DNA of 64,000 bases, taken from NCBI RefSeq assembly GCF_029227855.1, contig NZ_CP074356.1; one strand, 5' to 3'. Origin of the DNA: Escherichia coli. Its GTDB lineage: Bacteria > Pseudomonadota > Gammaproteobacteria > Enterobacterales > Enterobacteriaceae. A program made the translations under genes and the position numbers. The notes under the pieces were generated by a model. That model was not told the DNA's origin, did no database searches, and saw nothing but the letters and a program-made list of their open reading frames with translations. Shown here piece by piece: positions 1,733 through 27,560 of the stretch; the first letter of the stretch is position 1, and the number at the start of each line of letters is the position of its first letter.

Positions 1733-3234
1733 TGAAGACGTTGTTCTCCCGCTTAATTACCGTTATTGCCTGCTTTTTTATCTTCTCTGCCGCATGGTTT
1801 TGCCTGTGGAGTATCAGCCTGCACCTGGTTGAGCGCCCTGATATGGCGGTGCTGTTATTTCCGTTTGGTCTGCGTCTGGGGCTAATGCTGCAATGCCCGC
1901 GCGGATACTGGCCGGTGCTGCTGGGCGCGGAGTGGCTGCTGATTTACTGGCTAACGCAGGCGGTCGGTTTAACCCATTTTCCGTTATTGATGATCGGTAG
2001 TTTACTGACGTTACTGCCCGTGGCGCTGATCTCGCGCTATCGCCATCAGCGTGACTGGCGCACCTTGCTGTTACAGGGTGCGGCGTTAACGGCGGCGGCG
2101 TTGTTGCAGTCGCTGCCCTGGCTTTGGCACGGCAAAGAGTCGTGGAATGCGCTGTTGCTGACTTTAACTGGCGGCCTGACGCTGGCCCCGATATGTCTGG
2201 TGTTCTGGCACTATCTCGCCAATAACACCTGGCTGCCGCTCGGCCCGTCACTGGTTTCTCAGCCGATCAACTGGCGCGGGCGACATCTGGTCTGGTACTT
2301 GCTGCTGTTTGTTATCAGTCTCTGGCTCCAGTTGGGATTGCCGGACGAACTGTCGCGCTTTACGCCATTTTGTCTGGCGCTGCCGATTATCGCGCTGGCC
2401 TGGCACTATGGTTGGCAAGGGGCGCTGATTGCGACGTTGATGAACGCCATCGCGCTGATCGCCAGTCAAACCTGGCGCGATCATCCGGTGGATTTATTGC
2501 TCTCGCTGCTGGTGCAAAGTCTGACAGGGTTGTTGCTTGGCGCTGGCATCCAGCGGTTGCGTGAACTTAACCAGTCGCTGCAAAAGGAACTGGCGCGCAA
2601 TCAGCATCTGGCTGAACGGTTGCTGGAAACCGAAGAGAGCGTGCGCCGTGATGTGGCGCGTGAGCTGCATGATGATATCGGTCAGACCATCACAGCCATT
2701 CGTACTCAGGCGGGCATTGTTCAGCGGCTGGCGGCAGATAACGCCAGCGTGAAGCAGAGCGGGCAGCTCATCGAACAACTATCGCTGGGCGTTTACGACG
2801 CGGTGCGCCGTTTGTTGGGTCGGTTACGTCCGCGCCAGTTGGATGATCTCACCCTGGAGCAGGCCATCCGCTCACTGATGCGGGAAATGGAGCTGGAAGG
2901 GCGCGGTATTGTCAGCCATCTCGAATGGCGAATCGATGAATCAGCGTTAAGCGAAAACCAGCGCGTGACGCTGTTTCGTGTCTGCCAGGAAGGGCTGAAC
3001 AACATTGTGAAACATGCTGATGCCAGCGCGGTCACCCTGCAAGGCTGGCAGCAGGATGAACGGTTGATGCTGGTTATTGAAGACGATGGCAGCGGTTTGC
3101 CGCCGGGTTCCGGGCAACAAGGTTTTGGCCTCACCGGAATGCGCGAGCGCGTAACGGCACTGGGTGGCACATTACACATTTCCTGTCTGCACGGCACGCG
3201 TGTCAGCGTTTCTCTACCTCAACGCTATGTCTAA
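1732..3234 (+). CDS. uhpB: Sensor histidine kinase UhpB
   Basis: 500 aa from ATG 1732; N-terminal membrane domain, H-box (ELHDDIGQ) and C-terminal ATPase domain. Confidence 0.92.
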
Positions 3235-3243
3235 GGTTTGATG

Positions 3244-4563: not shown

Positions 4564-4597
4564 TGCATCTCACCTTTTCACTTCATATCCGGCAAAA

Positions 4598-9412: not shown

Positions 9413-9464
9413 TAACTGGCGAGGGTTTCCAGATATCATGAGTTCTGATTACGCAGGAGAACTC

Positions 9465-9917
9465 ATGATCTGGATAATGCTCGCCACGCTGGCGGTAGTG
9501 TTTGTGGTTGGTTTTCGGGTGCTGACATCCGGGGCCAGAAAAGCGATTCGCCGTCTCAGCGATCGGCTGAATATCGATGTCGTACCCGTGGAGTCGATGG
9601 TCGATCAAATGGGAAAGTCAGCCGGTGACGAATTTTTACGTTATTTGCATCGCCCGGATGAGTCGCACCTGCAAAACGCCGCGCAGGTGTTGCTCATCTG
9701 GCAAATTGTCATTGTCGATGGTAGCGAACAGAACCTGCTGCAATGGCATCGGATTTTACAAAAAGCCCGTCTTGCCGCGCCGATTACCGATGCTCAGGTC
9801 AGGCTGGCGCTGGGTTTTCTGCGCGAAACCGAACCTGAAATGCAGGATATTAATGCTTTTCAGATGCGCTATAACGCGTTCTTTCAGCCTGCCGAGGGCG
9901 TTCACTGGCTGCATTAA
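9465..9917 (+). CDS. yicN: Uncharacterized protein YicN
   Basis: 150 aa from ATG 9465, which has a strong AGGAGA Shine-Dalgarno; alternative upstream start at 9438. Confidence 0.78.
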   Translation: MIWIMLATLAVVFVVGFRVLTSGARKAIRRLSDRLNIDVVPVESMVDQMGKSAGDEFLRYLHRPDESHLQNAAQVLLIWQIVIVDGSEQNLLQWHRILQKARLAAPITDAQVRLALGFLRETEPEMQDINAFQMRYNAFFQPAEGVHWLH

Positions 9918-9919
9918 AA

Positions 9920-9995
9920 CCGCTTCGTCTTATCAGCCTACAGACCGCGCCTGACCTGTCGGGTGGATAAGACGTTCACGCCGCATCCGGTAATC
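9920..9995. repeat. REP-like extragenic palindromic element
   Basis: Imperfect palindrome cgtcttatcagcctacag...ggtggataagacg...gccgcatccgg typical of E. coli REP units. Confidence 0.5.
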
Positions 9996-10127
9996 TTTGC
10001 CCTGTTCCGTTTCGATCTTAACTCCAGCTCAAGCAACACCGTAAAAGTTGCAAAAACGTTAAATGCGTCACACATTTCAATGTTAAAGTGGTCGGCTTTT
10101 CCCCTGAAACATGCCACGGGTAACACC

Positions 10128-11318
10128 ATGAGTGAATTTATTGCCGAAAACCGCGGCGCGGATGCCATCACCCGACCGAACTGGTCAGCCGTTTTCTCGG
10201 TGGCGTTTTGCGTCGCCTGTCTGATTATCGTTGAGTTTTTGCCCGTCAGTTTGTTGACGCCTATGGCCCAGGATTTAGGCATTTCGGAAGGGGTTGCCGG
10301 GCAATCGGTGACCGTGACCGCCTTTGTGGCAATGTTTGCCAGTTTGTTTATTACCCAGACAATTCAGGCCACTGACCGCCGCTACGTTGTTATTTTGTTT
10401 GCCGTTTTGCTGACGCTCTCCTGTTTGCTGGTTTCCTTTGCCAACTCATTCAGTTTGCTTTTAATCGGTCGTGCCTGTCTGGGGCTGGCGCTGGGCGGGT
10501 TCTGGGCGATGTCGGCGTCGCTGACCATGCGTCTGGTACCGCCGCGTACGGTGCCGAAGGCGCTGTCGGTGATCTTCGGCGCGGTTTCTATTGCGCTGGT
10601 GATTGCCGCGCCGTTGGGCAGTTTTTTAGGCGAGCTTATCGGTTGGCGCAATGTCTTTAATGCGGCGGCGGTGATGGGCGTGTTGTGTATTTTCTGGATT
10701 ATCAAATCATTGCCTTCACTGCCAGGCGAACCCTCGCATCAGAAACAAAATACTTTCCGCTTATTACAACGTCCGGGTGTGATGGCAGGGATGATCGCCA
10801 TCTTCATGTCTTTCGCCGGGCAGTTTGCTTTCTTCACGTATATTCGCCCGGTGTATATGAACCTGGCGGGATTCGGCGTGGATGGCTTAACGCTGGTGCT
10901 GTTGAGTTTTGGTATCGCCAGCTTTATTGGTACGTCGCTTTCGTCGTTCATTCTTAAACGTTCGGTAAAACTGGCCTTAGCAGGCGCGCCGTTAATACTG
11001 GCTGTGAGTGCGTTGGTACTGACGTTGTGGGGAAGCGATAAAATCGTTGCTACCGGCGTGGCGATTATCTGGGGGCTAACTTTTGCATTGGTTCCCGTCG
11101 GCTGGTCAACGTGGATCACCCGCTCGCTGGCCGATCAGGCAGAAAAAGCCGGGTCTATTCAGGTGGCGGTTATTCAGCTTGCTAATACCTGTGGCGCGGC
11201 AATCGGCGGTTATGCGCTGGATAATATTGGTCTGACTTCGCCGTTGATGTTGTCCGGCACATTGATGTTGCTGACTGCATTGTTGGTTACTGCAAAGGTG
11301 AAAATGAAGAAATCCTGA
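10128..11318 (+). CDS. nepI: Purine ribonucleoside efflux pump (MFS)
   Basis: 396 aa from MSEFIAEN; 12-TM MFS protein; ORF track start 9963 is over-extended. Confidence 0.88.
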
Positions 11319-11358
11319 TATCAGGTAAAGAAGCGTTGGTCAGTAGTTGTTGCTGTTC

Positions 11359-11652
11359 TTACATATCCGGGCATTCTACCTTACCCAACGCTTCCCAATA
11401 ATTGCTCTGATTATTACGTTCCATCGCCACGATGGCTTCGCGTATATGTTGTTTATTGTTTTCATCTGACAACATTAACTTTTCCCACGCTTCATCTGAT
11501 AATGACGCCTGTGGCGTGCAAATTTTACGTAAATCTTGTAATACCGTGGTTTTCTCTTTTGCGGACTGCAGTGAGCTAAAAGGCGACTCGGCGTATACGA
11601 TGCCTGGCATAGCGAAAAAAGTGAAAATAAGCAGTAGTGTCGTTGGTTTCAT
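11359..11652 (-). CDS. yicS: Uncharacterized secreted protein YicS
   Basis: 97-aa ORF with N-terminal signal peptide. Confidence 0.78.
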   Translation of the reverse strand: MKPTTLLLIFTFFAMPGIVYAESPFSSLQSAKEKTTVLQDLRKICTPQASLSDEAWEKLMLSDENNKQHIREAIVAMERNNQSNYWEALGKVECPDM

Positions 11653-14914: not shown

Positions 14915-15550
14915 TCTTCTGAATCACCGGGCGAAAAAATATAACTGAGTTACAAATAAGTACCAGTCGAATGAGTATTGTATTAAGAATTTTTGAGTAT
15001 CGCTGATACAACCAGAAAGCAATGCTAGCGCAATATTATAGGGCCAGCAATTGAGATTATTAGTAAAAGCATGTTAAGAATTAATTACCGAATTTATATA
15101 TTAATTATAGTAAGGCAATGAGCTATTTTTGATAGTAAAAATAAAACAAGTTGATTTGATATATTAAATGAACAAATTAATCTTGATGGCAGTCTGATTA
15201 TTGGTGAAGTTTATAGTCAGTTTTTTTCGCCAGCGGTTAAAGAAATAGAATAGTCGTATAAAAAAGGGTGTTCTGGGGCGAGTAAAACAACATCTTCACC
15301 TTAATGGCGATACAGTTGGCTGAGAGTCAGCAGGGGGGCAAATCACCTGCAAATAAACACGGCGCATACTGGCGTGAATATCGCGGATGCGTTCGAGGAC
15401 AGAAGAACCGACAGGCGGATTCTTCAGCCGCTCATCGTCCATCACAAAACCTTAGACCAGGTATTCCTGAAGCCGATTGAATATTGAGCAGTAGAAAATA
15501 TCTGGATTGACAGTATTACAAGGGGTTGGAGAACGTCAGGAGAGGCATTT

Positions 15551-15571
15551 TGGCGGAAGATCACAGGAGTC
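15551..15571 (+). repeat. attL: 21-bp direct repeat of the selC 3' end
   Basis: Exact copy of 27174..27194. Confidence 0.8.
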
Positions 15572-15715
15572 AAAATTGACATATAACAATTTGATTTAAA
15601 TCGTTTATATTTTTCTATTCTAATTCATTTATACACATCCTTATACATATAATATCTATCGATTAATTTTTACACGCATCTTCACGCACGTTAACTCAGG
15701 AAAAAAATTTTTTTT

Positions 15716-16012
15716 TCGGAAGAACTGTTCACACTGTTCACCTTTCTGTTTTCTCCTTTTATTTCAGTTGGATAGGTGGTGAATAATGGGTGAAGGGTGA
15801 ACATTCGATTCTTCACCTCCGGCATTCTGCCGGTGTGACTCATACCGGTGATTAATCCCCCGTGCTGAAATCACACCGGAAGAAAAAAGTTTTTTTTGAT
15901 TTGATTGTTCACACTGTTCACCTTTCATTTTTCTCTTTTAATTTCAGTGTGATAACGGGTGAATATACGGTGAAGGGTGAACAGTGGATTGTTCACCTTC
16001 GGGGAATTCAGG
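15716..16012. repeat. crr-like region: two ~110-bp direct repeats with TGTTCACC/GGTGAACA octamer iterons
   Basis: Block gttcacactgttcacctttc...ggtgaagggtgaaca occurs twice (about 15722 and 15903), immediately downstream of the alpha gene; P4 crr has two 120-bp repeats with alpha-binding type I iterons. Confidence 0.7.
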
Positions 16013-16047
16013 GATAAAAAAAGACCGGCAGATGCCGGTCACGTGGG

Positions 16048-18381
16048 TCAGGTTGTTGCAGGGTCGTCACATTTTGGCAGCCAGTCGCCGTAGCTTTCCT
16101 CTTTCAGCGTCAGGTTGGTCTGTATCCCCTGTTTGGTATGGCGCTTCTCGTAATTCAGTCCGTATTCCTTCAGCATCACCGGCAGCCCCAGCCCGAACAT
16201 TTTCAGACTGAGTACATTCCGGTAGCCGTTTGCCTCCATGTAGGCCAGATAGGCGTGATAGAGGTATTTACGGTAATTGCGCGGGATGATACTGGCGTTC
16301 CCCATATACATGCCGCTGGTCTGCGGCAGGGTTTCCAGATAGCCGATAAAATCAAACGTCGGGTCGGCATCCCGTTTGATGTTCAGCGCCTCGTCTGAGT
16401 TCTGCTGGGACTGAAGCAGTGACCGGGCGAGCATCGGGTCGCTGAACTTCTGCATCAGGTGACGCACGATGACCGCCAGCTCGCGGGTGATTTTGTCCTT
16501 AAGTTGCGGGTCGCGCTCCTGCGGGGCTATCTGTTCCGGGAAGTGAATAATCACCCGCCGGCGTGACACGCCGCCGCTGCGGTCGGTGAAGCGCATCGGG
16601 TTATTGTTCACGGCCAGAATCACCGCCGGGATATGCGTGGAGTACGCATCCCGGTATTTCGGGTCAACGGACACTGCATCGCCGCCGGTGATGGCCTTGA
16701 GTCCGGCTCCGTCGCCGCTCCATTTTTCCTGGTCCGGCAGGCGTATCAGTGAGAAGCCAGTTAACGCGGCACGTTCACGCGGGGATTCCAGCGTCTCAAT
16801 GGTGGCCGACGTGGCGTTATCCTCCCCGGCCAGCAGGGTGGCTATTTCGGCCATGATACTTTTGCCGCTGCCGCCGGGACCGGTCACCTCCAGAAAGAGC
16901 TGCCAGTCGTAGCGGTTTGCCAGCACCATAAACAGTGCGGCCAGAATCACGTCGCGTTTTTCCGCACGGCCACCGGCGGCACGGTCAAGCCAGCGCCAGA
17001 ACGCGGGGGCGTGGGTCTCCAGCGTTTCCCCTTCCACCGGCGGGGTGAAATCCACATCGCACAGGGTGCGCATCCAGTGTGACGGACTGTGCGGGTGGAA
17101 CGTGCCGTTCTGCGTGTCGAGCACGCCGTTACGAAAGCCAATCAGGCGGCGGGAGGGGGCTTCCTGCTGCGGAATAATCAGCTTCAGGGTGTCCACCACG
17201 GAGGCCACCTTCCCGGAGGAGAACGGCGCGCGCAGACGCTGAAACAGCCCGGCCACATCCCGGGCAAAGTCCTGTGGCGGCAGCACCTTCCAGACACCAT
17301 TTTCATAGCGGGACAGAAGCTGGCCGTTGGCATCGACCGCGAGCGCCTCGCCGTAATGCTCATAGATACGCATGGCCTTTTCGCTGGTACTCATGGCGGA
17401 AAACTCCGCTTCGCTCATGGTGTCGAACGGGCTTTCAGCCGGTGGCCGGATGGCATCATAAATGGCCTTACGGGTGGCTTCCCCGCCGTACTGCGTGAAG
17501 GCATCATTCCAGTCACCGAAGACCGGCGGCAGGGCAACAACACCTTCACACGCATCTGCGGCTGCGGCGGCTTTTTTCTGGCCGTCACCACTGAGGTCAC
17601 GGTCAGCGGCAAGGACAATCTGACAGGCGGGGTGCTTCTGCCGGGCAAGGCTGGCCAGAGAAAGGAGGTTCACGGAAGAAAGCGCCACCATCACCGTTTC
17701 ACCGGTCAGGTGATGTACGGTAAGTGCGGTCGCGTATCCCTCCGCTATCCACAGACGTTTTCCGGCCTGATTCTGTCCTTCAAGGGTGTGACAGGTGCCC
17801 CTGACCTGTCCGCCTTTCAGGGTGCGCTTACGGCCGTCAGCACTGATTAACTGAAGGTTAACCAGTTCGCCGCTGTCGTCATACAGTGGCACCACAAGGT
17901 CACCGGCGCGCCAGCTCACGCCACCGGCTCTGTGTGTGCCGGTCAGCATCCGGCATTCCCGGCCGGGAAAGCCCTTGCGGGTCAGGTAGGCGTTACCGGT
18001 TCCGGTACGGGTTTTCGCCATCAGGGTTTGTGCCAGTGCGGCGGCGTTCTTCCGGGCAGCGTCTGTTTCAGCACCGGCGGCGGCCGTCACTGCCGGGTCA
18101 GCCGGGGGCAGGCTGCCGGTCACGGCAGCCACCTTTGCGGCCGCGTCGGACGGGGAAACACCAAACACCTTTTCAACCAGTTTCAGGCCGTCACCGGCAC
18201 CACACTGATTGCAGTACCAGGTGCCGCGCCCCTCCCTGTCATCAAAACGGAAGCGGTCACTCCCGCCACAGACCGGACAGGGCTGATGACGGTTCTTCAG
18301 CACCTGAATCCCCAGCGCCGGGAGAATACGCGGCCAGTGGCCGAGCGCATGGCTGACGGTGGCGGTTACGTTCATTTTCAT
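16048..18381 (-). CDS. P4 alpha-like DNA primase/helicase
   Basis: 777-aa ORF; N-terminal zinc-finger primase motif CPVCGGSDRFRFDD...YCNQCG; Walker A GPGGSGKS in the C-terminal helicase part; same length as P4 alpha. Confidence 0.9.
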   Translation of the reverse strand: MKMNVTATVSHALGHWPRILPALGIQVLKNRHQPCPVCGGSDRFRFDDREGRGTWYCNQCGAGDGLKLVEKVFGVSPSDAAAKVAAVTGSLPPADPAVTAAAGAETDAARKNAAALAQTLMAKTRTGTGNAYLTRKGFPGRECRMLTGTHRAGGVSWRAGDLVVPLYDDSGELVNLQLISADGRKRTLKGGQVRGTCHTLEGQNQAGKRLWIAEGYATALTVHHLTGETVMVALSSVNLLSLASLARQKHPACQIVLAADRDLSGDGQKKAAAAADACEGVVALPPVFGDWNDAFTQYGGEATRKAIYDAIRPPAESPFDTMSEAEFSAMSTSEKAMRIYEHYGEALAVDANGQLLSRYENGVWKVLPPQDFARDVAGLFQRLRAPFSSGKVASVVDTLKLIIPQQEAPSRRLIGFRNGVLDTQNGTFHPHSPSHWMRTLCDVDFTPPVEGETLETHAPAFWRWLDRAAGGRAEKRDVILAALFMVLANRYDWQLFLEVTGPGGSGKSIMAEIATLLAGEDNATSATIETLESPRERAALTGFSLIRLPDQEKWSGDGAGLKAITGGDAVSVDPKYRDAYSTHIPAVILAVNNNPMRFTDRSGGVSRRRVIIHFPEQIAPQERDPQLKDKITRELAVIVRHLMQKFSDPMLARSLLQSQQNSDEALNIKRDADPTFDFIGYLETLPQTSGMYMGNASIIPRNYRKYLYHAYLAYMEANGYRNVLSLKMFGLGLPVMLKEYGLNYEKRHTKQGIQTNLTLKEESYGDWLPKCDDPATT

Positions 18382-18395
18382 GGTGTTGTTCTCCT

Positions 18396-18716
18396 TCAGT
18401 GCAGTACCGGCGCTTTTATGTGACGGGCACAGAGTTCATCCATCACAACCAGCCCGAGAAAGGACAGCGACGGCGCGGCCTTCAGGGGGCCGGATTCCAT
18501 TAAATCTTCCAGCAGGGCACAGGCTATCTGACGCCCTTTTTCCTCACCGTGCTGGCGCAGATAAAAGCCTTCCAGCTCAGCGGCGATGGCCGCCTCCAGT
18601 GATTCAAGGGTGAGATGCGGGTAGCGGTGCTGACGTTCGCACACGGTCAGCCAGGCACAGGCGACAGCGCGACGGTAAAGGGCAGCGCGTAAGACGGGCG
18701 GTAAGGGTGTTTTCAT
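18396..18716 (-). CDS. Hypothetical protein (P4-like left operon, 106 aa)
   Basis: ORF immediately upstream of and co-directional with alpha; no recognised motif. Confidence 0.5.
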
Positions 18717-18851
18717 TTGCTTTCCTCCCTGTGACAGATGACTGCATTCCGTGCCGGTTGCATTAACTGATAAGGCATATCTGCGTCTCCTGAAGACGTG
18801 CGTATCCCTGCGCGAATACGCACATTTAATTTTTCGGGTGTCGTTTTTTAA

Positions 18852-19307
18852 TTACAGATAATTGCGGTAACTGTTATCCGGGGTGATTTCCGGGTCAGGC
18901 TCCGTGCGGGGAATTTCCCGCCATTCCCGCGCCACCTGTGCCGCCCGGCTGACCGGAACAGGGTCCTGCGGGTAAATATCCAGATATTTCTCCCGCCATT
19001 TCTGTAATTCCGGGTCTCCGGCCATTTCTTTCAGTACCGCATGCCGGTTTACGGGGCTGCGTCTGAACAGGTCAGGACGGTCACAGGTAAATTCCCGCAG
19101 AAAACGCCCCAGCGGGATGTCTGTGGTGCGCCCGTCAGCGAGGATACGCACAAGGATACTGAATTTACGGCGGTACGGGTTCCAGACAATGTCCGGGCAG
19201 CGGTACGGCATTTCCCACGGAATACCGTCTTCCAGAATGCCGACCACGGCCACATCGGGAAAACCGGCAGAACGGTAAATCTCACCGGGCTGGGGAAAAT
19301 CAAACAT
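18852..19307 (-). CDS. Hypothetical protein (151 aa; same length as P4 orf151)
   Basis: Co-directional ORF in the left operon; protein-like composition. Confidence 0.55.
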   Translation of the reverse strand: MFDFPQPGEIYRSAGFPDVAVVGILEDGIPWEMPYRCPDIVWNPYRRKFSILVRILADGRTTDIPLGRFLREFTCDRPDLFRRSPVNRHAVLKEMAGDPELQKWREKYLDIYPQDPVPVSRAAQVAREWREIPRTEPDPEITPDNSYRNYL

Positions 19308-19872
19308 GCGTCCTGTCTCCCCGGTCTTTCTGCTGGGCGAGAAAATCGCGGCACAGGCCTTTGGCTTTCAGCTCATTCAGCACAAAATCAATATCTTCAT
19401 TCAGGTAACTGAAAATATGCGGAATGTAGAGCTGATGCAGGCCGGAGAGTTCACGGTGAATCAAATCACCCCCAACAAACTGGGATACGGCGCTGGCGCG
19501 GTTGAGCTTATGGTAAGCCTCAATGCTGAGGTGTTCACGGGCGTCATGACGTGCTGAGACGGTCTGAGGGGCTTTTTTATTACGCACGGGACACCTCCAC
19601 CACCGGCAGACGGGCAGCAAGGGAGAGCACATAGTCACGGACAAGGGAACGGCGGGCACTGCGTTCATCACCGGCCACGGTGCGAAGCATACAGATACGG
19701 GGATGACGGTCTGCGCGACGGACAGCCGCAAACACAAAGACAAATTCAGGGTGTGAGGGGGTAAGGGTTGTAGCCATGATGGCAGCCTCCTGTGAATAGC
19801 AAATAACGCTATCGCCGGAGTTCTCACGCTCGATGGCGATAGCCCAGACGGGGGTGAGAATACCGGCTTCAC
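19300..19872 (-). CDS. Hypothetical protein, start uncertain
   Basis: C-terminal ~85 aa look protein-like; the N-terminal part is P/S/L/R-rich and overlaps another frame; putative GTG start. Confidence 0.3.
19580..19777 (-). CDS. Hypothetical small protein (65 aa; C-terminal part of the 214-aa ORF)
   Basis: Internal ATG ([12 protein letters not shown]...) gives a compact ORF ending at the stop at 19580; the upstream part of the 214-aa ORF overlaps vis and is probably not coding. Confidence 0.25.
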
Positions 19873-20175
19873 AGGATACCGGCCAGCCCGGAGGCTGCCC
19901 CGCCTGAGCTACCATTGACTCTGCGGCATAATGAGCGGACGCGGGCAGGATGCACGGAATGCCATCTGCACGACTGACCACACACCACACCATAATCTGG
20001 CGCTCTGTGGCATTGATTGCGACACAAAAAAAGACGCGTGGCGCGTCATATGTCGCCTGTGAATTGCTCGGGTTCTCACGCCCGGCTGCCGATTTTGCGG
20101 CAGCGGAAAAACTATATCCGCAAATGCCGGAAAAAGGCAAGCCAGAAAAAGGGAGTTTTTGCAGAGCGGGCATCA

Positions 20176-20442
20176 TCATGCGTCGTACCCCCGTTTGCGT
20201 CCGGCAATGCGTCCGGCCATCCATGCGGTGACTTCAGAGTGCAGCCAGGCCACATTTTTACCGCCAAGACTCACCTGCGGCGGAAATTCCCCCTTACGGA
20301 TGAGTTCATAGATGGTCGAGCGTGACAGGCCGCACAGGTGCATCACTTCCGGCAGACGTAAAAAACGCTCCTGCGTGATGTCCGGCAGCGGCATCAGTGG
20401 CGTCACTGGGGCGGGAGACGGGGAAGAAAAAACAGATTGCAT
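20176..20442 (-). CDS. AlpA/Vis-family phage transcriptional regulator (88 aa)
   Basis: AlpA-type HTH signature FLRLPEV...[15 protein letters not shown]; same length as P4 Vis (orf88). Confidence 0.78.
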
Positions 20443-20545
20443 CGGGCTACCTCGTTAATGTCCATACAGCACCGGATAAGTCCGTCCGGCTTCGGGTAGC
20501 GCTTTATTTTGTGAATATTTTCGGCAGACGCAACAGGGGGGGATT

Positions 20546-20563
20546 TGTTCCGGCAGTCTTACA
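20546..20563. promoter_or_regulatory. TGT-N12-ACA site (Ogr/Delta-type activator box), candidate leftward late promoter
   Basis: TGTtccggcagtcttACA ~110 bp upstream of the vis start; P2/P4 late promoters carry TGT-N12-ACA centred near -55. Confidence 0.4.
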
Positions 20564-20719
20564 ATGGCTGTGTATTTTTTGTACATCAGCGCCAGATAGC
20601 TTTAAAACGCTCTGGAAGGAGCTGGAAAAAATTATAGTGAAATACAAATTGTTTTTTCTTATTTATTTCAGTGAATTAATAAAAATAAAAAGTAATGAAC
20701 AGCACAAAAAGCCCATTAA

Positions 20720-20830
20720 CGGGTGAACAGTGGTGAACAGACGGTGAACAGTCATTACTGCGATTGTTCACCCTTTAACTTACTGTATTACTTATCTTTT
20801 TTCTTATGGTGAACAGAGGTGAACAGTAAA
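20720..20830. repeat. ori-like cluster of GGTGAACAG iterons
   Basis: Five direct copies and one inverted copy of GGTGAACA(G) within ~110 bp, ~4.8 kb from the crr-like repeats, as in P4. Confidence 0.65.
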
Positions 20831-20904
20831 ATATAAAAAAACAAACAGTAAGCCGGTTTTTCCTGCGACCTTTTCCTGGCTTGCCGGTCTGAGGATGAGT
20901 CTCC

Positions 20905-20922
20905 TGTGTCAGGGCTGGCACA
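20905..20922. promoter_or_regulatory. TGT-N12-ACA site, candidate Psid late promoter activator box
   Basis: TGTgtcagggctggcACA centred ~80 bp upstream of the sid ATG. Confidence 0.45.
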
Positions 20923-20994
20923 TCTGCAATGCGTCGTGTTGTTGTCCGGTGTACGTCACAATTTTCTTAACCTGAAGTGACGAGGAGCCGGAAA

Positions 20995-21729
20995 ATGTCT
21001 GACAACACCATCCCTGAATATCTGCAACCCGCGCTGGCACAACTGGAAAAGGCCAGAGCCGCCCATCTTGAGAACGCCCGCCTGATGGATGAGACCGTCA
21101 CGGCCATTGAACGGGCAGAGCAGGAAAAAAATGCGCTGGCGCAGGCCGACGGAAACGACGCTGACGACTGGCGCACGGCCTTTCGTGCAGCCGGTGGTGT
21201 CCTGAGCGACGAGCTGAAACAGCGCCACATTGAGCGCGTGGCACGCCGGGAGCTGGTACAGGAATATGACAATCTGGCCGTGGTGCTGAATTTTGAACGT
21301 GAACGCCTGAAAGGGGCGTGTGACAGCACGGCCACCGCCTACCGGAAGGCACATCATCACCTGCTGAGTCTGTATGCAGAGCATGAGCTGGAACACGCCC
21401 TGAATGAAACCTGTGAGGCGCTTGTCCGGGCAATGCATCTGAGCATTCTGGTACAGGAAAATCCGCTCGCCAACACCACCGGCCATCAGGGCTACGTCGC
21501 ACCGGAAAAGGCTGTCATGCAGCAGGTGAAATCATCGCTGGAACAGAAAATAAAACAGATGCAAATCAGCCTCACCGGCGAGCCGGTTCTCCGGCTGACC
21601 GGACTGTCAGCGGCAACACTCCCGCACATGAATTATGAGGTGGCAGGCACACCGGCACAGCGCAAGGTGTGGCAGGACAAAATAGACCAGCAGGAAGCAG
21701 AGCTTAAGGCCAGAGGGCTGCTGTCATGA
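20995..21729 (+). CDS. sid: P4 Sid-like capsid size determination (external scaffold) protein
   Basis: 244 aa from MSDNTIPEY; coiled-coil-rich; first gene of the sid-delta-psu arrangement. Confidence 0.78.
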   Translation: MSDNTIPEYLQPALAQLEKARAAHLENARLMDETVTAIERAEQEKNALAQADGNDADDWRTAFRAAGGVLSDELKQRHIERVARRELVQEYDNLAVVLNFERERLKGACDSTATAYRKAHHHLLSLYAEHELEHALNETCEALVRAMHLSILVQENPLANTTGHQGYVAPEKAVMQQVKSSLEQKIKQMQISLTGEPVLRLTGLSAATLPHMNYEVAGTPAQRKVWQDKIDQQEAELKARGLLS

Positions 21730-22226
21730 TTTACTGCCCGTCGTGTGGACATGTTGCTCACACCCGTCGCGCACATTTCATGGACGATGGCACCAAGATA
21801 ATGATTGCACAGTGCCGGAATATTTATTGCTCTGCGACATTTGAAGCGAGTGAAAGCTTTTTCTCTGACTGTAAAGATTCAGGAATGGAATACATTTCAG
21901 GCAAACAGAGATACCGCGATTCACTGACGTCGGCCTCCGGCAGTATGAAACGCCCGAAAAGAATGCTTGTTACCGGATATTGTTGTCGGAGATGTAAAGG
22001 CCTTGCACTGTCAAGAACATCGCGGCGTCTGTCTCAGGAAGTCACCGAGCGTTTTTATGTGTGCACGGATTCGGGCTGTGGTCTGGTGTTTAAAACGCTT
22101 CAGACCATCAACCGCTTCATTGTCCGCCCGGTCACACCGGACGAACTGGCAGAACGCCTGCATGAAAAACAGGAACTGCCGCCAGTACGGTTAAAAACAC
22201 AATCATATTCGCTGCGTCTGGAATGA
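21726..22226 (+). CDS. delta: P4 Delta-like late-gene activator (tandem Ogr-type zinc fingers)
   Basis: 166 aa; two Ogr-like Cys motifs (CPSCGH...CRNIYC and CCRRCKG...CTDSGC); start overlaps sid stop. Confidence 0.88.
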   Translation: MIYCPSCGHVAHTRRAHFMDDGTKIMIAQCRNIYCSATFEASESFFSDCKDSGMEYISGKQRYRDSLTSASGSMKRPKRMLVTGYCCRRCKGLALSRTSRRLSQEVTERFYVCTDSGCGLVFKTLQTINRFIVRPVTPDELAERLHEKQELPPVRLKTQSYSLRLE

Positions 22227-22299
22227 GGGCTGCCGGTTAACCCCGGCCGTCGCCGCACACCGTATTTTTATTCTTCAGCATGATGAGAAAGAGATAACG

Positions 22300-22872
22300 A
22301 TGGAAAGCACAGCCTTACAGCAGGCCTTTGACACCTGTCAGAATAACAAAGCAGCATGGCTGCAACGCAAAAATGAGCTGGCAGCGGCCGAACAGGAATA
22401 CCTGCGGCTTCTGTCAGGAGAAGGCAGAAACGTCAGTCGCCTGGACGAATTACGCAATATTATCGAAGTCAGAAAATGGCAGGTGAATCAGGCCGCCGGT
22501 CGTTATATTCGTTCGCATGAAGCCGTTCAGCACATCAGCATCCGCGACCGGCTGAATGATTTTATGCAGCAGCACGGCACAGTACTGGCGGCCGCACTGG
22601 CACCGGAGTTGATGGGCTACAGTGAACTGACGGACATTGCCCGAAACTGTGCCATACAGCGTGCCACAGATGCCCTGCGTGAAGCCCTTCTGTCCTGGCT
22701 TGCGAAGGGGGAAAAAATTAATTATTCCGCACAGGATAGCGACATTTTAACGACCATCGGATTCAGGCCTGACGCGGCTTCGGTGGATGACAGCCGTGAA
22801 AAATTCACCCCTGCGCAGAACATGATTTTTTCGCGTAAAAGTGCGCAACTGGCATCACATCAGTCTGTGTAA
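22300..22872 (+). CDS. psu: P4 Psu-like polarity suppression / capsid decoration protein
   Basis: 190-aa ORF following delta; same length and position as P4 Psu. Confidence 0.78.
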   Translation: MESTALQQAFDTCQNNKAAWLQRKNELAAAEQEYLRLLSGEGRNVSRLDELRNIIEVRKWQVNQAAGRYIRSHEAVQHISIRDRLNDFMQQHGTVLAAALAPELMGYSELTDIARNCAIQRATDALREALLSWLAKGEKINYSAQDSDILTTIGFRPDAASVDDSREKFTPAQNMIFSRKSAQLASHQSV

Positions 22873-23036
22873 AACTCCCCGAAAATCCGTCCGATTTTAC
22901 TGAAAAAAGCCATGCATCGATAAGGTGCATGGCTTTGCATGCGTTTCCCTGCCTCATTTTCTGCAAACCGCGCCATTCCCGGCGCGGTCTGAGCGTGTCT
23001 GTGCAACTGCATTAAAACCGCCCTGCAAAGCGGGCG

Positions 23037-23055
23037 GGCGAGGCGGGGAAAGCAC
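23037..23055 (+). other. P2/P4-type cos site
   Basis: Exact 19-mer GGCGAGGCGGGGAAAGCAC, the P2/P4 cohesive-end sequence as I recall it, between psu and the cargo operon. Confidence 0.78.
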
Positions 23056-23076
23056 TGCGCGCACGAGAGTAAAACA

Positions 23077-23739
23077 TTACTCAATTGAAAAATGTAACAT
23101 TCCTCTCTCTCTCGGTGTAATGGTGTTGGGATGAACTAACCGTTCCATTTCAAAACCAAAATCATGATAAGCAGTATTATAAAAAGAGCTTAAAATAAAT
23201 TTCACAAACGTTACCGGACATAATGGTGACGACAATGGTATCCGGCAATTTTTAAACTGACCTAGGGTTAGGTGTGCTGCTGGATGAATAACATCATTAG
23301 CGTCATCAGGGGCATAATCCACTCGTATCGGAACGGGTAAAATTGATTTTTGGACAATGTCAGCATAAAAGTTGCTTTCGTCTAAATATAACTCAGGGTC
23401 ATTCTGGAATGATTCGTAATTAGGCGCGGGGAAATAACATAGTCTTTCTTTTACAAGTTTCATTCGACGATCAAACTGAAATAAAAGATGGAGTAACCCA
23501 CCATCTAATAATTTGATATTATATTGCCTTTTTTCGTCCAAGAAGTTATAGATATCAACATACTCAATATTTCTTAATGCAATTGAAGTATCAGCGAATC
23601 CGCTATAGCTGACATAATAATATTCTTTATCCCGTGTTATTACAGGATAGTTTTGTGCGTCACTGATACCCACTGATATCAGATGAGATGTGATTTTTCT
23701 AATTGCTGCGCAAATGCTACTTGAGTTCATCTCATTCAC
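23077..23739 (-). CDS. Hypothetical protein, second gene of the satellite cargo operon (candidate defense partner/effector)
   Basis: 220-aa ORF; start overlaps or lies 1 nt after the stop of the upstream helicase-like gene; AT-rich; no recognisable catalytic motif or TM segment. Confidence 0.7.
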   Translation of the reverse strand: MNEMNSSSICAAIRKITSHLISVGISDAQNYPVITRDKEYYYVSYSGFADTSIALRNIEYVDIYNFLDEKRQYNIKLLDGGLLHLLFQFDRRMKLVKERLCYFPAPNYESFQNDPELYLDESNFYADIVQKSILPVPIRVDYAPDDANDVIHPAAHLTLGQFKNCRIPLSSPLCPVTFVKFILSSFYNTAYHDFGFEMERLVHPNTITPRERGMLHFSIE

Positions 23740-25828
23740 CCTTCAGTTGCTTAATTAAAGCAAGGCGTAATTCTTCTGGTATATCTTCAACTCTAACTTG
23801 TCCATCCAATAGAACCATGAGATTATGGGCGTTCAATTTAGCTTGGTGTACTCTTTTTCTCTCTTGAGAAGTCATATCCCTGTTCACCAGTCGCATTTTT
23901 TTACGCTCTGCTTCTGTTGGGTATGTAAATTCCAGTTTAAATCCTCTTTGTTTCACCTCATTGTATTCGTTAATCAGGCCATCAAAGGAAGAACCCACAC
24001 CACATACACGAAGCCATGCTTTAGTTCTTGTCATTGCAGTAAAAAGGATATTTCTACGCTTTGCCAGTTCATAATCCACGTTGCAATAATGAGCATCCAT
24101 GATGTATACCATAGCTGCTTCGTTTCCCTTTGCTCTGAATATGGATGTAAATGTTACACTATTGTCTGAGAAAAACTCATCAGGAGAGCTTGTAATTCCA
24201 GCTATAGATGTATTAATTCCGTTTTGGAATAAAAGGTCACGCAGATAACCTACTTCATTTCTCATACGTATTGTATCTGGGTGAATTACAACAATGTCGC
24301 TAGGTAATATCTCTTCCTCATGAATATTTTTAAATATTTCCTGCGCAATCCAATTAGATTGAGAATGCTTGTCTTCAAATTTAACAAACTGGATCATCTC
24401 ATCAATTGAGTTATGTGCACTCAATAGGGATGGGCTAGATTTCGTTGTCCTTGATAATATAACCTCCTTTCCCTCAACTAATTCACCATCTATTTTTTCA
24501 TAACCAATCTCTGTCCATAATCCTTCAAAATCAAACATCTGAATTATTGGTTTATGATAAATACCAAACCCTAAAGCATGAGCCGTGGTTAAGATTGGGC
24601 CTGGATTTCGATAACAAATGTCTAAAGTTATATCTTGTTCTTCACTGGTGAAACTAACAATTGGTTTTCCATGCTCGTCTACTCCCCAAATTTGTTCAGG
24701 AGAAGGCATGGATGAATCCCCAAGATTTTGTAATTCATCATAAGCGTAAACTAATCGTTTCTTTTCCCCTAGCAAAGAATAACATATGCGGAGAAACTCA
24801 ATTGAAAAATCTTGAGCCTCATCAATAAGGATGAAATCATATAATTTCTTATCTTCTTTTTTATTATCGAGGAAGTTCTTACAGGCAGCCTGAAAAGGTG
24901 TTTCATTAAATTCTGCAAGACGACGTGCGCCGTTATAATCGTAATAAGGTATATTATGTGCCACACATGCGTTGTAATATAAACCTTCTGTTTTAGAGCC
25001 GCCCCAGGCATGAATAATGTCTACGTTATCCCAATCAATTCCATTATCATCTGCGAATGCTGAGACTAAATGTTTTAGTTGCTCTTTGAGAGAGCGACTA
25101 TTGAAAGTAACTGCTATTTTCCAGTGAGGATTTTGTGAGTGTATATGTGCAATTTTTCGAGCGAGAACAATAGTCTTACCTGAGCCAGCAAGCCCACGAA
25201 TCCTTTGGACATTATCAATATTGACCAAGACGGCAGTCGTTTGACTAGAATCAAGAGTGGCAAGTGAATTCTCCAATTTTTTTAGTACGCTACCCTTTGA
25301 GTCAATCTGTCTGACATAGCTTCTTTTTCTCTTGGGCTTCAATTTTGAAAGTGATTGAACATGGGATAGTAAAGTTTCAAGAAGGGAACCATCATCCCAG
25401 GTAATGTCATTGAGAATAGATAATATTTCATCAACATTGGAACTAATGCTTAAACCACTGTCACAATCAAAATCATCAATATTTATACAGTTTGGTGCGA
25501 AAACAATACTGTTCACAGGTACGTTTAATATTCTGTTTTTAGTCAGTGCTTTTACTTCAGAAAGTTTTGCGACGAATTTCATGTGCATTTCGTCAATGAT
25601 ATCAATATCATCTTGGGTTAACTCTCTTTCCTCATTGAAATGGAAAATGACAACACCATGCTTTGATGAGCAAATTAGACCATCAAGAGTAACATTGTTT
25701 TCGCTTAGAAAAATAACAGGAAAACCGCGATAATAATATCCAGTTATATCATTTATCTTTCTTATTGAATTTTCTAGAATATCAGAAACAGTATGATTCT
25801 GAGGTTTCATTCCCAATATTTCAATCAT
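23732..25828 (-). CDS. SF1 (UvrD-like) helicase-family ATPase with ~200-aa N-terminal domain of unknown function; candidate defense protein
   Basis: 698 aa; Walker A GLAGSGKT (res ~212-219), motif II LIDEAQDF (res ~334-341), C-terminal FRAKGNEAAMVYI and FTAMTRTKAWL resembling UvrD-like helicase C-terminal motifs; GGAG Shine-Dalgarno 8 nt before the ATG; start overlaps the int stop. Confidence 0.85.
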   Translation of the reverse strand: MIEILGMKPQNHTVSDILENSIRKINDITGYYYRGFPVIFLSENNVTLDGLICSSKHGVVIFHFNEERELTQDDIDIIDEMHMKFVAKLSEVKALTKNRILNVPVNSIVFAPNCINIDDFDCDSGLSISSNVDEILSILNDITWDDGSLLETLLSHVQSLSKLKPKRKRSYVRQIDSKGSVLKKLENSLATLDSSQTTAVLVNIDNVQRIRGLAGSGKTIVLARKIAHIHSQNPHWKIAVTFNSRSLKEQLKHLVSAFADDNGIDWDNVDIIHAWGGSKTEGLYYNACVAHNIPYYDYNGARRLAEFNETPFQAACKNFLDNKKEDKKLYDFILIDEAQDFSIEFLRICYSLLGEKKRLVYAYDELQNLGDSSMPSPEQIWGVDEHGKPIVSFTSEEQDITLDICYRNPGPILTTAHALGFGIYHKPIIQMFDFEGLWTEIGYEKIDGELVEGKEVILSRTTKSSPSLLSAHNSIDEMIQFVKFEDKHSQSNWIAQEIFKNIHEEEILPSDIVVIHPDTIRMRNEVGYLRDLLFQNGINTSIAGITSSPDEFFSDNSVTFTSIFRAKGNEAAMVYIMDAHYCNVDYELAKRRNILFTAMTRTKAWLRVCGVGSSFDGLINEYNEVKQRGFKLEFTYPTEAERKKMRLVNRDMTSQERKRVHQAKLNAHNLMVLLDGQVRVEDIPEELRLALIKQLKGE

Positions 25829-27011
25829 TTTGAACTCCGGTAGATAAATTCATCAAAAAATCCGAGTATTTTTGCATCATATATTTTCTTTTATCAAGAT
25901 ACAAAGCATGATTATATGTGCCTCGGATAGTATTCTTATCAACATGTGCGAGCTGAATCTCAATCCATGCGCTCTCAAATCCCATTTCATGAAGAATTGT
26001 CGATAGTGTATGCCTAAAACCATGACCAGTAGTTCTTCCCTTATAACCTAATGATTCAATAACTTGGTTTACACTTTCTTTGCTTATCGGTTTTCTACGA
26101 TCATTTCTGCCAATAAAAACATAGGGATAGTCCGATGTTATCGGTTGTAGTTGTTTAAACAGTTCAATTACCTGAGATGATAAAGGTACTATATGTGGCC
26201 GACGCATTTTCATCCGTTCAGCAGGTATTTCCCAGATACCTTTTATCAAATCAATTTCACTCCAAGTTGCAAAACGCATTTCCTGCGTCCTGACTCCTGT
26301 CATCATTAGGATCTTGGTTGCGTTTTTGGTAATAATACTTCCAGTATATGACTCTAGATCTCTAACAAAATGAGGTAGCTCTTCCGCGGATAAAAACGGA
26401 TGATGCCTTTGCTTGGGAATAGCCAAAGCGATTGCTAAATCAGGCGCCGGATTGTATTCAGCACGGCCAGTGATGATCGCGTAGCGAAACACTTCTCCAC
26501 ATCGTTGGCGAACTTTTCTGGTTTTCTCCAACGCTCCACGTTTTTCGATGCGCTTAAGTACTTCAAGCAGTTCTAATGGCTTAATTTCAGATATTGGGCG
26601 TTTACCAATGAAAGGAAAAACGTCCTGTTCGAATGTTTTAATAATTTCCTCCCGATAAGCGATAGTCCAGCGATCTGCTTTTGCTGCATGCCATTCTCTG
26701 CTAACTGACTCAAAAGAATTTTCAGTTGATAATTTTTGAGCAAGTTTCTGAGCCTTCCGTTCTTCTACTGGGTCTATGCCGTTTGCTACCTGCTTACGTG
26801 CAGTATCACGTTTCTCTCGTGCTTCTGCGAGGCTAACAAGTTCGTAACTACCAAATGACATTAGCCGTGCTTTACCGGCGAAACGAAAGCGGAAGCGCCA
26901 GCCCTTTGAACCGTCTGGCTTGATGAGTAGTGACAAACCGTGCCCATCATTCATTGTATATGGTTTGTCTTGTGGTTTTGCGCGTTTGATTTGTATATCG
27001 GTTAGAGCCAT
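25821..27011 (-). CDS. int: P4-type tyrosine integrase
   Basis: 396 aa; catalytic HGFRHT...(R)...Y motifs in the C-terminus; N-terminal P4-integrase-like region; lies next to selC. Confidence 0.93.
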   Translation of the reverse strand: MALTDIQIKRAKPQDKPYTMNDGHGLSLLIKPDGSKGWRFRFRFAGKARLMSFGSYELVSLAEAREKRDTARKQVANGIDPVEERKAQKLAQKLSTENSFESVSREWHAAKADRWTIAYREEIIKTFEQDVFPFIGKRPISEIKPLELLEVLKRIEKRGALEKTRKVRQRCGEVFRYAIITGRAEYNPAPDLAIALAIPKQRHHPFLSAEELPHFVRDLESYTGSIITKNATKILMMTGVRTQEMRFATWSEIDLIKGIWEIPAERMKMRRPHIVPLSSQVIELFKQLQPITSDYPYVFIGRNDRRKPISKESVNQVIESLGYKGRTTGHGFRHTLSTILHEMGFESAWIEIQLAHVDKNTIRGTYNHALYLDKRKYMMQKYSDFLMNLSTGVQND

Positions 27012-27173
27012 GTGTATAACTGAAAACTGCGTATGAAGATTCTATACACATTACTATACATATTTTTCGCGGATTCAGGGAGATGATCTCGGACTATTAC
27101 GGACAAGATGATTATTTATGATATTGAATATAAAGGATTTTATGGAGTATCTCGGAACTGGCTGGATGAAGTT

Positions 27174-27268
27174 TGGCGGAAGATCACAGGAGTCGAACCT
27201 GCCCGGGACCGCTGGCGGCCCCAACTGGATTTGAAGTCCAGCCGCCTCACCGGAGACGACGATCTTCC
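27174..27268 (-). tRNA. selC: tRNA-Sec (selenocysteine tRNA, UCA anticodon)
   Basis: 95-nt match to the selC sequence as I recall it, on the minus strand, including long variable arm and CCA end. Confidence 0.93.
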
Positions 27269-27560
27269 GCGCCTCGATTGCTACATGGAGGCGGGGCGCA
27301 TTATAGCTACTTCCTTGAGTTTCTACATCCCCCAGATCAGTTTTTTCCGCCTAATACACGCAGCGTATTATCACGAAAGCATTATAGTTCATATAAAACC
27401 CATATTTTACAATGATATATGAGCGGAATTAACGCTACCACGATCACATAAAACAAGAATCATAAATTAATAACCAGATATCGGAATATTCGCTCTCACA
27501 GGGATGGTTTACAAAATGCGTTATCGGTCTCAGCACCCCTATAGCATCAAGGAAAAGCAG

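Follow-up and report, generated by a model that had tools for sequence, protein, structure and literature searches.

A predicted Helicase+DUF2290 defence cassette packed between cos and an overlapping integrase gene in a P4-like satellite of Escherichia coli

Results

A P4-like satellite in tRNA-Sec carries Helicase+DUF2290

The window analysed in the present study, a stretch of 64,000 nucleotides from Escherichia coli, contains an element bounded by exact 23-nt att core repeats, TTTGGCGGAAGATCACAGGAGTC, which start at 15549 and 27172. Its genes, cos site, C4 RNA, and att repeats identify it as a P4-like phage satellite integrated in tRNA-Sec (Table 1). The gene order of the P4 core, psu, delta, sid, alpA, epsilon/icd region, alpha, and int, was found, and an identical element in RefSeq CP026935 is annotated with psu, delta (ogr/Delta), a gene at the sid position, an alpA-like HTH gene, an icd-like gene, and the alpha primase-helicase gene. 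Rfam matches at 19832–20117 (C4 antisense RNA, 74.9 bits; isrK, 69.7 bits; c4-a1b1, 49.5 bits) reveal a C4-type immunity RNA, and the layout of two 120-nt repeats, 180 nt apart at 15703–16002, matches that of P4 crr. The tRNA-Sec gene lies directly upstream of int in the same orientation, separated from it by a 162-nt spacer.

Table 1. Features of the satellite and of its cargo region, in window coordinates
Feature	Position	Strand	Evidence or remark
P4-like satellite, 11,623 bp repeat-to-repeat	15549..27194	-	23-nt exact att core repeats
alpha primase ORF, 777 aa	16048..18381		ORF list
psu, polarity suppression/capsid-decoration protein	22300..22872	+	Pfam Psu, E=4.6e-88; convergent with cargo
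Terminator-like hairpin, CCGCCC-N8-GGGCGG then TTTTAAT	23008..23037	-	conserved DNA just past cos
cos 19-mer (23037-23055) and conserved 7-nt flank TGCGCGC (23056-23062)	23037..23062	.	exact match
Cargo-specific non-coding DNA, cos side, 14 nt	23063..23076	-	only such DNA on the cos side
DUF2290 protein, 217 aa	23077..23730	-	ATG at 23730; Pfam PF10053, E=6e-48; PADLOC PDLC02999, E=2e-77
SF1 UvrD-like helicase, Helicase+DUF2290 system, 698 aa	23732..25828	-	PADLOC, Pfam; identical to WP_001697485
int-stop/helicase-start overlap, 8 nt	25821..25828	-	ATGATTGA; ORF reading and RefSeq
P4-family tyrosine integrase int, 396 aa	25821..27011	-	Pfam Arm-DNA-bind_3, Phage_int_M, Phage_integrase
Variable linker, 25 nt	25829..25853	-	codes for the greater part of the C-terminal tail of Int; holds the helicase GGAG
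Candidate sigma-70-like site, TTGATA-18 nt-TGcAAAAAT	25868..25897	-	inside int; -10 ends 40 nt before the helicase ATG
tRNA-Sec (selC), integration target	27174..27268	-	ARAGORN; Rfam RF01852, 83.8 bits

The coordinates of the genes and of cos place the cargo between cos and int, as a sequence-only reading of this DNA had proposed. Judged by gene content and order, the cargo is a Helicase+DUF2290 system with predicted anti-phage activity (DefenseFinder Rst_HelicaseDUF2290; PADLOC PDLC03002 and PDLC02999). The helicase aligns with PDLC03002 over residues 1–696 of 698 (E=2e-265), contains the Pfam domains UvrD_C_2, UvrD-helicase, and AAA_19, and shows Walker A (GLAGSGKT) and DEAQD motifs in its translation. 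The DUF2290 gene, whose stop codon is 23079..23077, begins with an ATG 1 nt past the helicase stop, which RefSeq also uses; an alternative GTG at 23739 would give an 8-nt overlap with the helicase gene. Homologues of the DUF2290 protein have 215–220 aa.

WP_001697485, together with its DUF2290 partner, is listed among the P4-hotspot systems in Table S1 of Rousset et al. 2022 (PMC9122126), and the homologous system of Klebsiella pneumoniae SB5961 was validated there against T7. The pair in the window and that of SB5961 share the two-gene architecture and full-length homology, with 46% identity between the helicases and 40% between the DUF2290 proteins, and both sit in a P4 hotspot. The SB5961 copy is, however, inverted: psu, cos, helicase, and DUF2290 are followed by a convergent int across a 49-nt gap, and a leader of ~440 nt lies on the cos side, whereas the cargo in the window stands behind int. 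In the sole experimentally validated Helicase+DUF2290 clone (SB5961, pFR91), the genes thus face the other way and expression comes from the cos side, and so its result does not bear on expression from the int side. The same inversion explains why the pFR91 reverse primer, ACAGGGAAATTACGCCGTTT, was not found in Klebsiella-type loci. No mechanism of the Helicase+DUF2290 system was described in the literature searched, and no solved structural relative of DUF2290 was found.

The helicase gene starts within int

On the plus strand, positions 25821–25828 read tcaatcat, the reverse complement of ATGATTGA, in which the int stop codon TGA (25823..25821) and the helicase ATG (25828..25826) are both contained. 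The ORF coordinates, and the RefSeq annotation of the identical locus (int, 8290–9480; helicase, 9473–11569), bear out the proposal that the helicase start overlaps the last int codons. The geometry is identical to that of the overlapping stop and start codons (ATGA or 8-nt) known from compact phage and operon genes, and four other co-directional gene pairs annotated by RefSeq in this element share 4 or 8 nt. The overlap, though genuine, is therefore ordinary and should not be treated as an annotation anomaly.

The conservation of homologues indicates that this first ATG is the true start of the helicase. An N-terminal MI[E/D]xxG is kept in ~65 homologues of 698–707 aa from many genera, and the PADLOC model alignment begins at residue 1. 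An in-frame ATG at codon 7 (25810..25808), which had been named as the start that would speak against the overlap, might instead be the real start, or a frameshift might fuse Int to the helicase. Residue 7 is, however, M, I, T, V, S, or A in the homologues while residues 1–6 are conserved; a GGGA abuts the Met7 ATG with zero spacing; the lengths of the homologues argue against a start there; and at GAT TGA the junction sequence offers no slippery motif on which a +1 shift could occur. We consider both versions extremely improbable and have rejected them on the N-terminal conservation and the missing slippery site.

A tight junction recurs in all four lineages in which the cassette is co-oriented with int: relative to the helicase ATG, the int stop is at -8 in the window, -4 in the Klebsiella type, and +3 nt in Hafnia and Leclercia. 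The ‘minimal’ selC integrases end in ...LYP(N/T)* after 389 aa, and that of the window is seven codons longer, running across the 25-nt linker that carries the ribosome-binding site. Since ATGATTGA, the first codons of the helicase, has a TGA in both alternative frames (positions 2–4 and 6–8), any upstream ORF in those frames stops within the first 8 nt. The 8-nt overlap is then probably a by-product of an unconstrained int C-terminal tail and the conserved, TGA-bearing first helicase codons, with no special signal involved.

The overlap might alternatively have been selected as a translational-coupling device that fixes the Int:helicase ratio. A stop located 5 nt downstream of the start is compatible with termination-reinitiation, and the stop-start distance stays between -8 and +3 nt in the four lineages. 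The helicase nevertheless has its own well-spaced GGAG (25838..25835, 6 nt upstream of the ATG), and no RNA structure would occlude it: folding of the junction RNA gave no stable structure (z=+0.68). Furthermore, the lineages use three different stop solutions (TAA at +3, ATGA, and ATGATTGA), the system also functions when inverted, with no int gene preceding it, and a functional reason for an Int-helicase stoichiometry is lacking. Selection for coupling seems quite unlikely on this evidence, and the helicase is probably translated from its own GGAG, with termination-reinitiation possible but not required.

The cargo region has a fixed edge at cos and a graded edge in int

The cos 19-mer, GTGCTTTCCCCGCCTCGCC at 23055..23037, is the reverse complement of GGCGAGGCGGGGAAAGCAC, the 19-nt cohesive end of P2/P4, and lies next to psu. 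The closeness of the small cargo gene to cos was correctly recognized in the sequence-only reading, which gave the distance as 22 bp; by coordinates, the DUF2290 stop lies 21 nt from the 19-mer, the discrepancy being one of counting. Such a tight approach is not general, given that other cargos end 25–195 nt from the cos block. Homology among satellites with unrelated cargos starts ~7 nt past the 19-mer, which sets the hotspot boundary at 23062/23063: in 29 of 29 partial matches, sampled from 2,255 E. coli records, similarity began at window positions 23061–23063 (BLAST query 3238–3240). In nine other loci that were aligned, the flank from cos+7 into psu/delta was 93–100% identical beside unrelated cargos, which included Kiwa-like, HEPN, AAA ATPase, DEAD helicase, HAD, RM, RT, and nSTAND systems. 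A conserved/variable junction at cos had already been shown in Fig. 1A of Rousset et al. 2022 (PMC9122126).

The edge on the int side has a different character, as examined with seven int sequences. The 5' part of int (~26442–27011) is 86–100% identical to that of other E. coli selC satellites, and the 3' part (~25857–26441) only ~70–80%. Among selC-type integrase genes with different cargos, identity drops from ~90–100% to ~70–80% at differing positions, near nt 216, 566, and 700. Alignability is lost ~30 nt before the stop, the last 10 codons (25853–25824) being unalignable, and GC content falls across int from 0.41–0.47 to 0.34–0.41. By these alignments, the int genes are mosaics, and the edge of the cargo region on this side is neither fixed nor located at the int stop. 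The expectation of sharply defined cargo boundaries consequently holds for the cos side, fixed at cos+7, and fails for the int side, where breakpoints vary inside int.

In all co-oriented helicase cassettes, the linker between the int core and the helicase ATG is 23–27 nt long, and its sequence cannot be aligned even between the element in the window and two other loci, L004 and L008. Because the tail is unalignable even between relatives with the same cargo, its variability could reflect fast drift instead of cassette junctions. No recent exchange was found in which the same cargo is joined to another int or the same int to another cargo: all 25 of the E. coli carriers share one int at an identity of at least 99.7%, and the sampled Klebsiella-type carriers likewise all share one. 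Strain EA7, in which the int match ends at nt 1042, was considered as a cargo swap and rejected, the truncation being an IS1 deletion.

Transcription of the cargo probably begins within or upstream of int

With the conserved int core and the helicase ATG only 25 nt apart, the cargo appears to be left without space for a dedicated promoter. Scans also detected no terminator-like site between the tRNA, int, helicase, and DUF2290 genes, and on this layout transcription of the cargo must begin within or upstream of int. The spacer between tRNA-Sec and int likewise holds no terminator-like hairpin. This structural logic favors the earlier suggestion that the cargo is read through from int or uses a promoter embedded in it. 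The three genes int, helicase, and DUF2290 would form one co-directional transcription unit, which likely ends at the hairpin and T-run adjacent to cos. Possible sources of the transcript are an autorepressed int promoter, read-through from the selC tRNA promoter, and the sigma-70-like site found inside int.

One possibility is that the cargo is expressed by read-through only, as the distal part of an int mRNA that starts at the autorepressed int promoter, in selC, or in both. The absence of intergenic space between int and the cargo and of any terminator from tRNA-Sec to cos agrees with this, as does the promoter scan, in which matches were not above chance but below shuffle expectation in all scans (7 versus 14.9±4.0 in one of them), with no enrichment. 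Promoters of P4-family integrase genes are known to be autorepressed (PMC7286903; Piazzolla 2006 as cited there). If read-through were the only source, the dosage of the defence system would depend on Int autoregulation and on the element being integrated. Defence, however, needs steady expression in the lysogen, for which autorepressed int promoters are weak, and three of the lineages with the helicase have kept, at one shared position, a sigma-70-like site whose -10 is extended. We regard read-through as the sole source as unlikely.

Another possibility is that the 3' end of int, at the codons for Y-L-D-K...M-M-Q-x-Y, contains a conserved promoter that drives any promoterless cassette landing behind int. 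The candidate in the window has counterparts at the equivalent place in relatives from Hafnia and Leclercia (TTGATA-18-TGcAAGAAT), giving TTGATA-18-TGcAA[A/G]AAT for the three, and TGgTATAGT-like extended -10 motifs occur in the same codons of other selC integrase genes. The arrangement of other cargos also agrees with such a platform. Broad queries returned few loci, one for the helicase in viral contigs and five for Psu in genome contigs, and the survey of junctions therefore covered roughly 20 individually fetched loci. In 6 of the 10 cargo architectures co-oriented with int, the first gene begins no more than 20 nt from the int stop and hence without promoter space (helicase, -8, -4, and +3; HEPN, -11; AAA ATPase, +12; DEAD helicase, +19); looser junctions are those of P4 cII (+66), HAD (+69), RT (+91), and RM (+167). 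On the other hand, the motifs differ among int variants and are partly forced by conserved codons, the candidate overlying those for Y-L/I-D and M-M-Q; they are absent or poor in loci L002 and L028 and in the Klebsiella type, whose cassette lacks the candidate site; the lack of statistical enrichment applies here as well; and leuX-type satellites leave 66–167 nt of intergenic DNA, presumably room for cargo promoters. The embedded promoter can thus be offered only as a tentative explanation, less likely than not.

Discussion

The locus analysed here is, by its genes and flanks, a cos-proximal defence hotspot of a P4-like satellite of the kind already described, and in nothing essential does it differ from the P4 hotspot of Rousset et al. 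2022 (PMC9122126), with which it shares the place between psu/cos and int, the junction at cos, and the kind of cargo. In reference P4 (NC_001609), the first accessory gene, cII, is likewise co-oriented with and downstream of int, but a 66-nt gap separates the two, cII has its own annotated terminator, and gop and beta read the opposite way, from the cos side. Neither co-oriented cassettes of selC/thrW-type satellites that abut or overlap int without promoter space, nor divergence that extends into 3' int with variable crossover points, were found in the available part of Rousset et al. 2022 (PMC9122126). The explanation as a whole, in which a P4-satellite hotspot carries Helicase+DUF2290 behind int, shares transcription with it, and exchanges its cargo asymmetrically, seems to us probable.

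The exchange of cargo would be asymmetric in that the cos cut site sets one end while the other is a homologous crossover that may occur anywhere in int, and such a crossover would let the 3' part of int hitch-hike with the cargo. A combination of one cos-end event and one homologous event was proposed in the Discussion of Rousset et al. 2022 (PMC9122126). The footprints seen here, fixed at cos+7 and graded in int, fit that speculation and make it testable.

The compaction of the cargo region may be favored because the satellite has to be packaged in the small capsid of P4: its length, 11,623 bp, is nearly that of reference P4 (11,624 bp), and its 2.75-kb cargo fills the slot at ~98% coding density. 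In P4-sized capsids, an engineering study reports, a cargo of ~4 kb can replace P4 positions 247–4065 (doi 10.64898/2026.03.30.715334). Sister selC satellites measure 10,622–11,289 bp, and the junction is likewise tight (+12) in one of 10.7 kb, on which grounds the capsid limit was rejected as the sole cause of tight junctions; it plausibly adds pressure for compaction.

A broader proposal can be made for the selC/thrW-type clade, namely that the 3' end of int serves as an expression platform, combining an embedded promoter with read-through from int or selC, at which promoterless defence cassettes dock no further than ~25 nt from the core of int and in doing so rewrite the C-terminal tail of Int, and that the catalytic half of int travels with the cargo as an exchange module bounded by cos. 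The proposal is speculative, and we would put its chances well below even. The integron offers an analogy: the Pc promoter within intI1 drives promoterless cassettes, as might be the case here for promoterless cargo beside a tyrosine recombinase gene that possibly contains a promoter. The likeness is one of analogy only, given that Pc is divergent from intI, whereas the cargo in the window is co-directional with int, that no attI or attC sites came to notice, and that the footprints here, with a constant edge at cos and a gradual loss of homology through int, suggest homologous or end-mediated recombination instead.

The locus is already known in kind, and the gains in understanding are modest. 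For annotation, it can be labelled as a P4-like satellite hotspot with Helicase+DUF2290 (Rst). The arrangement may matter more for experiments on defence systems because many cassettes co-oriented with int have no room for a promoter. A clone made ‘with native promoter’ but beginning at the int stop may therefore be silent, which could account for false-negative results in assays of defence.

The satellite and its cargo

The cargo operon belongs to a P4-like satellite integrated in selC. The element carries psu, the cos 19-mer and the C4/isrK immunity RNAs, delta, sid, alpA-like, icd and alpha primase genes are present in an identical RefSeq copy, and the layout of the two 120-nt repeats in the window is identical to that of the P4 crr replication region (4291-4410 and 4471-4590). 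An 11,640-bp IMG/VR viral contig (L003, IMGVR_UViG_2681813233_000013) bears an identical helicase, and its length, close to that of the satellite, suggests a complete satellite copy recovered as a "virus". E. coli EA7 (L044, NZ_CP069709.1) shows how such a satellite can decay at selC: there IS1 truncates the same int at nt 1042 and the remaining satellite is deleted to setC.

Coordinates of the satellite features in the window
Feature	Position	Strand	Remarks
int ORF	27011..25821	-	396 aa; stop TGA at 25823..25821
Helicase ORF	ATG at 25828..25826	-	698 aa
DUF2290 ORF	23077-23730	-	stop at 23077; 21 nt from cos 19-mer
P2/P4 cohesive-end 19-mer (cos)	23055..23037
Terminator-like hairpin, CCGCCC-N8-GGGCGG, then TTTTAAT	23037..23008	cargo strand	conserved DNA immediately past cos
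tRNA-Sec (selC)	27174-27268		co-oriented with int, just upstream of it
att repeats, 23 nt, exact	15549 and 27172		delimit the 11,623-bp element
Two 120-nt direct repeats, P4-like crr	15703-15822 and 15883-16002		spaced 180 nt apart

The 698-aa protein aligns over its full length with PADLOC model PDLC03002 ("Helicase"; E=2e-265) and also matches Pfam UvrD families, and PF10053 (E=6e-48) and PDLC02999 identify the 217-aa protein as DUF2290. Rousset et al. 2022 (PMC9122126) describe a hotspot between psu and int in P4-like satellites, report that the Helicase+DUF2290 pair of K. pneumoniae SB5961 blocks T7, and list the window helicase (WP_001697485) with a DUF2290 partner in Table S1; system, hotspot and cos junction have all been published before. 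Identity to the validated SB5961 pair is 46% for the window helicase and 40% for its DUF2290. Within P4 hotspots, members of the Helicase+DUF2290 family are found in either orientation (loci L031-L034 versus L008-L021). No description of its biochemical mechanism was found in the papers searched. The residues invariant among 49 DUF2290 homologues, which include D76, R96, D124, D138, H149, H153, K160, N161, C162, R163 and E208, look, together with the motif HPxxHLTLGQFKNCRIP, like a putative active site, and comparison of the confident AlphaFold model with the PDB gave no structural relative that was convincing. In a Leclercia metagenome scaffold (L007), int is split into two ORFs and is probably a pseudogene, with helicase and DUF2290 intact directly behind it. 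The 15-nt sequence ACTCAATTGAAAAAT occurs twice as an exact direct repeat, once at the stop of DUF2290 (23079-23093) and once within the helicase gene (24796-24810), probably by chance in AT-rich DNA.

The int/helicase junction

The sequence-only reading, in which the cargo is squeezed between cos and int with the helicase ATG overlapping the end of int, was borne out. The minus strand reads ...ACC GGA GTT CAA AAT GAT TGA, with ATG ATT GAA in the +1 frame, so that the two ORFs share the 8 nt ATGATTGA; GGAG lies 6 nt 5' of the helicase ATG, and the RefSeq annotation of the identical locus has the same arrangement. The downstream Met at residue 7, whose use would have refuted the sequence-only reading, was rejected as the helicase start, because the N-terminus MI[E/D]xxG is kept in ~65 homologues, most of them 698-707 aa long, from Enterobacterales, Vibrio, Shewanella, Pseudoalteromonas and others, while position 7 varies; translation is accordingly assigned to the first ATG.

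Homology among selC-type ints extends to ...MMQxYSDxL and is lost beyond it. The "minimal" ints of L028 and L030 end ...LYP(N/T)* after 389 aa, and others have 4-9 extra codons that read into whatever comes next, the window tail MNLSTGVQND being encoded by the 25-nt linker that also holds the helicase ribosome-binding site. As ATGATTGA has TGA in both non-helicase frames, an incoming ORF of any kind is halted within 8 nt. Relatives stop int differently, with TAA 3 nt before the ATG in Hafnia and Leclercia and with ATGA in the Klebsiella type, and the linkers of all these cassettes are 23-27 nt long and unalignable, yet the DNA on either side is ~75-80% identical. We infer that the 8-nt overlap is no dedicated signal but arises incidentally from a linker that is short and evolves fast.

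The window locus lies at the tight end of a continuum of spacings. Measured in nt from the int stop to the start of a co-oriented first cargo gene, these run from -11 (HEPN), -8 (this locus), -4 (Klebsiella-type helicase) and +3 (Hafnia and Leclercia helicase) through +12 (AAA ATPase), +19 (DEAD helicase), +66 (P4 cII) and +69 (HAD hydrolase) to +91 (RT) and +167 (RM), and convergent cargos leave a gap of 24-57 nt. All tight junctions belong to selC/thrW-type ints of ~390 aa. Compaction is plausibly under selection, because the element is nearly as long as P4 (11,623 versus 11,624 bp) and the 2.75-kb operon with int fills the slot of P4 positions 247-4065, which ~4 kb of cargo can reportedly replace in P4-sized capsids (engineering preprint, doi 10.64898/2026.03.30.715334). 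Sister selC satellites measure 10,622, 10,711 and 11,289 bp, and a size limit as the only cause of tight junctions was rejected, since the junction is likewise tight, at +12, in an element of 10.7 kb.

Boundaries of cargo exchange

Sharply defined exchange boundaries had also been proposed; the cos side agrees, but the int side has no fixed edge. The psu/cos part alone is common to 2,230 of 2,255 matching E. coli records, and in all 29 partial matches sampled the alignment starts at query 3238-3240, that is, at window 23061-23063, the cos 19-mer plus 6-7 nt. Six E. coli satellites with unrelated cargos, and in some cases different int types, are 88-100% identical from the cos edge onward (93-100% if the degenerate L001 is set aside and the five intact satellites are taken), and none of the six aligns upstream of it. 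Remnants can persist beyond cos, as one Klebsiella pair shows: ~320 nt separate DUF2290 from cos in the co-oriented type, and the inverted SB5961 type has the ~77 nt of this spacer nearest to cos in common with it.

Comparison of seven int sequences (window 25857-27011 versus L001, L002, L028, L030, L004 and L006) showed that selC-type ints are mosaics with near-identical 5' parts and sharply divergent 3' parts. The drop differs by pair, at about nt 216 (L028 versus L030), 566 (the window satellite versus L001 or L002, ~86-100% identity to nt ~565, then ~72%) and 700 (L002 versus L028, >92% up to there). GC content declines across int toward the cargo, and over its last 100-250 nt the window int is slightly closer to those of helicase-bearing relatives (76-78% identity) than to E. 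coli ints with other cargos (62-73%). The asymmetry fits one event at the cos ends plus one homologous crossover, a model offered as speculation by Rousset et al. 2022. On this model, judged from the seven int sequences, the crossover would lie within int and the 3' part of int would hitch-hike with the cargo.

Expression of the cargo

No terminator-like site was found between tRNA-Sec, int, helicase and DUF2290, the hairpin past cos being the first good one on the cargo strand. Because only 25 nt precede the helicase ATG, the cargo promoter should lie within or upstream of int, and expression by read-through or from an embedded promoter appears reasonable. One candidate source would be the int promoter; P4-family integrase promoters are described as autorepressed in PMC7286903 (and in Piazzolla 2006 as cited there), and TCCGAGAT motifs repeated upstream of int (window 27011-27300) look like putative Int arm sites. 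Another possibility is that the co-oriented selC promoter might feed an int-cargo transcript, because no terminator-like hairpin was found in the 162-nt tRNA-Sec/int spacer. A third candidate is a promoter-like site inside int, TTGATA-18-TGcAAAAAT (25897..25868), which Hafnia and Leclercia relatives share at the equivalent position and which the Klebsiella type lacks. Since such motifs fall on conserved codons and matches are rarer than in shuffled sequence, the three sources are not discriminated by sequence; nor is the validated SB5961 clone informative here, because its operon, unlike that of the window, has the inverted orientation, with transcription coming from the side of cos. It is conceivable, though rather doubtful, that the 3' end of int may act as an expression platform travelling with the cargo as one module.
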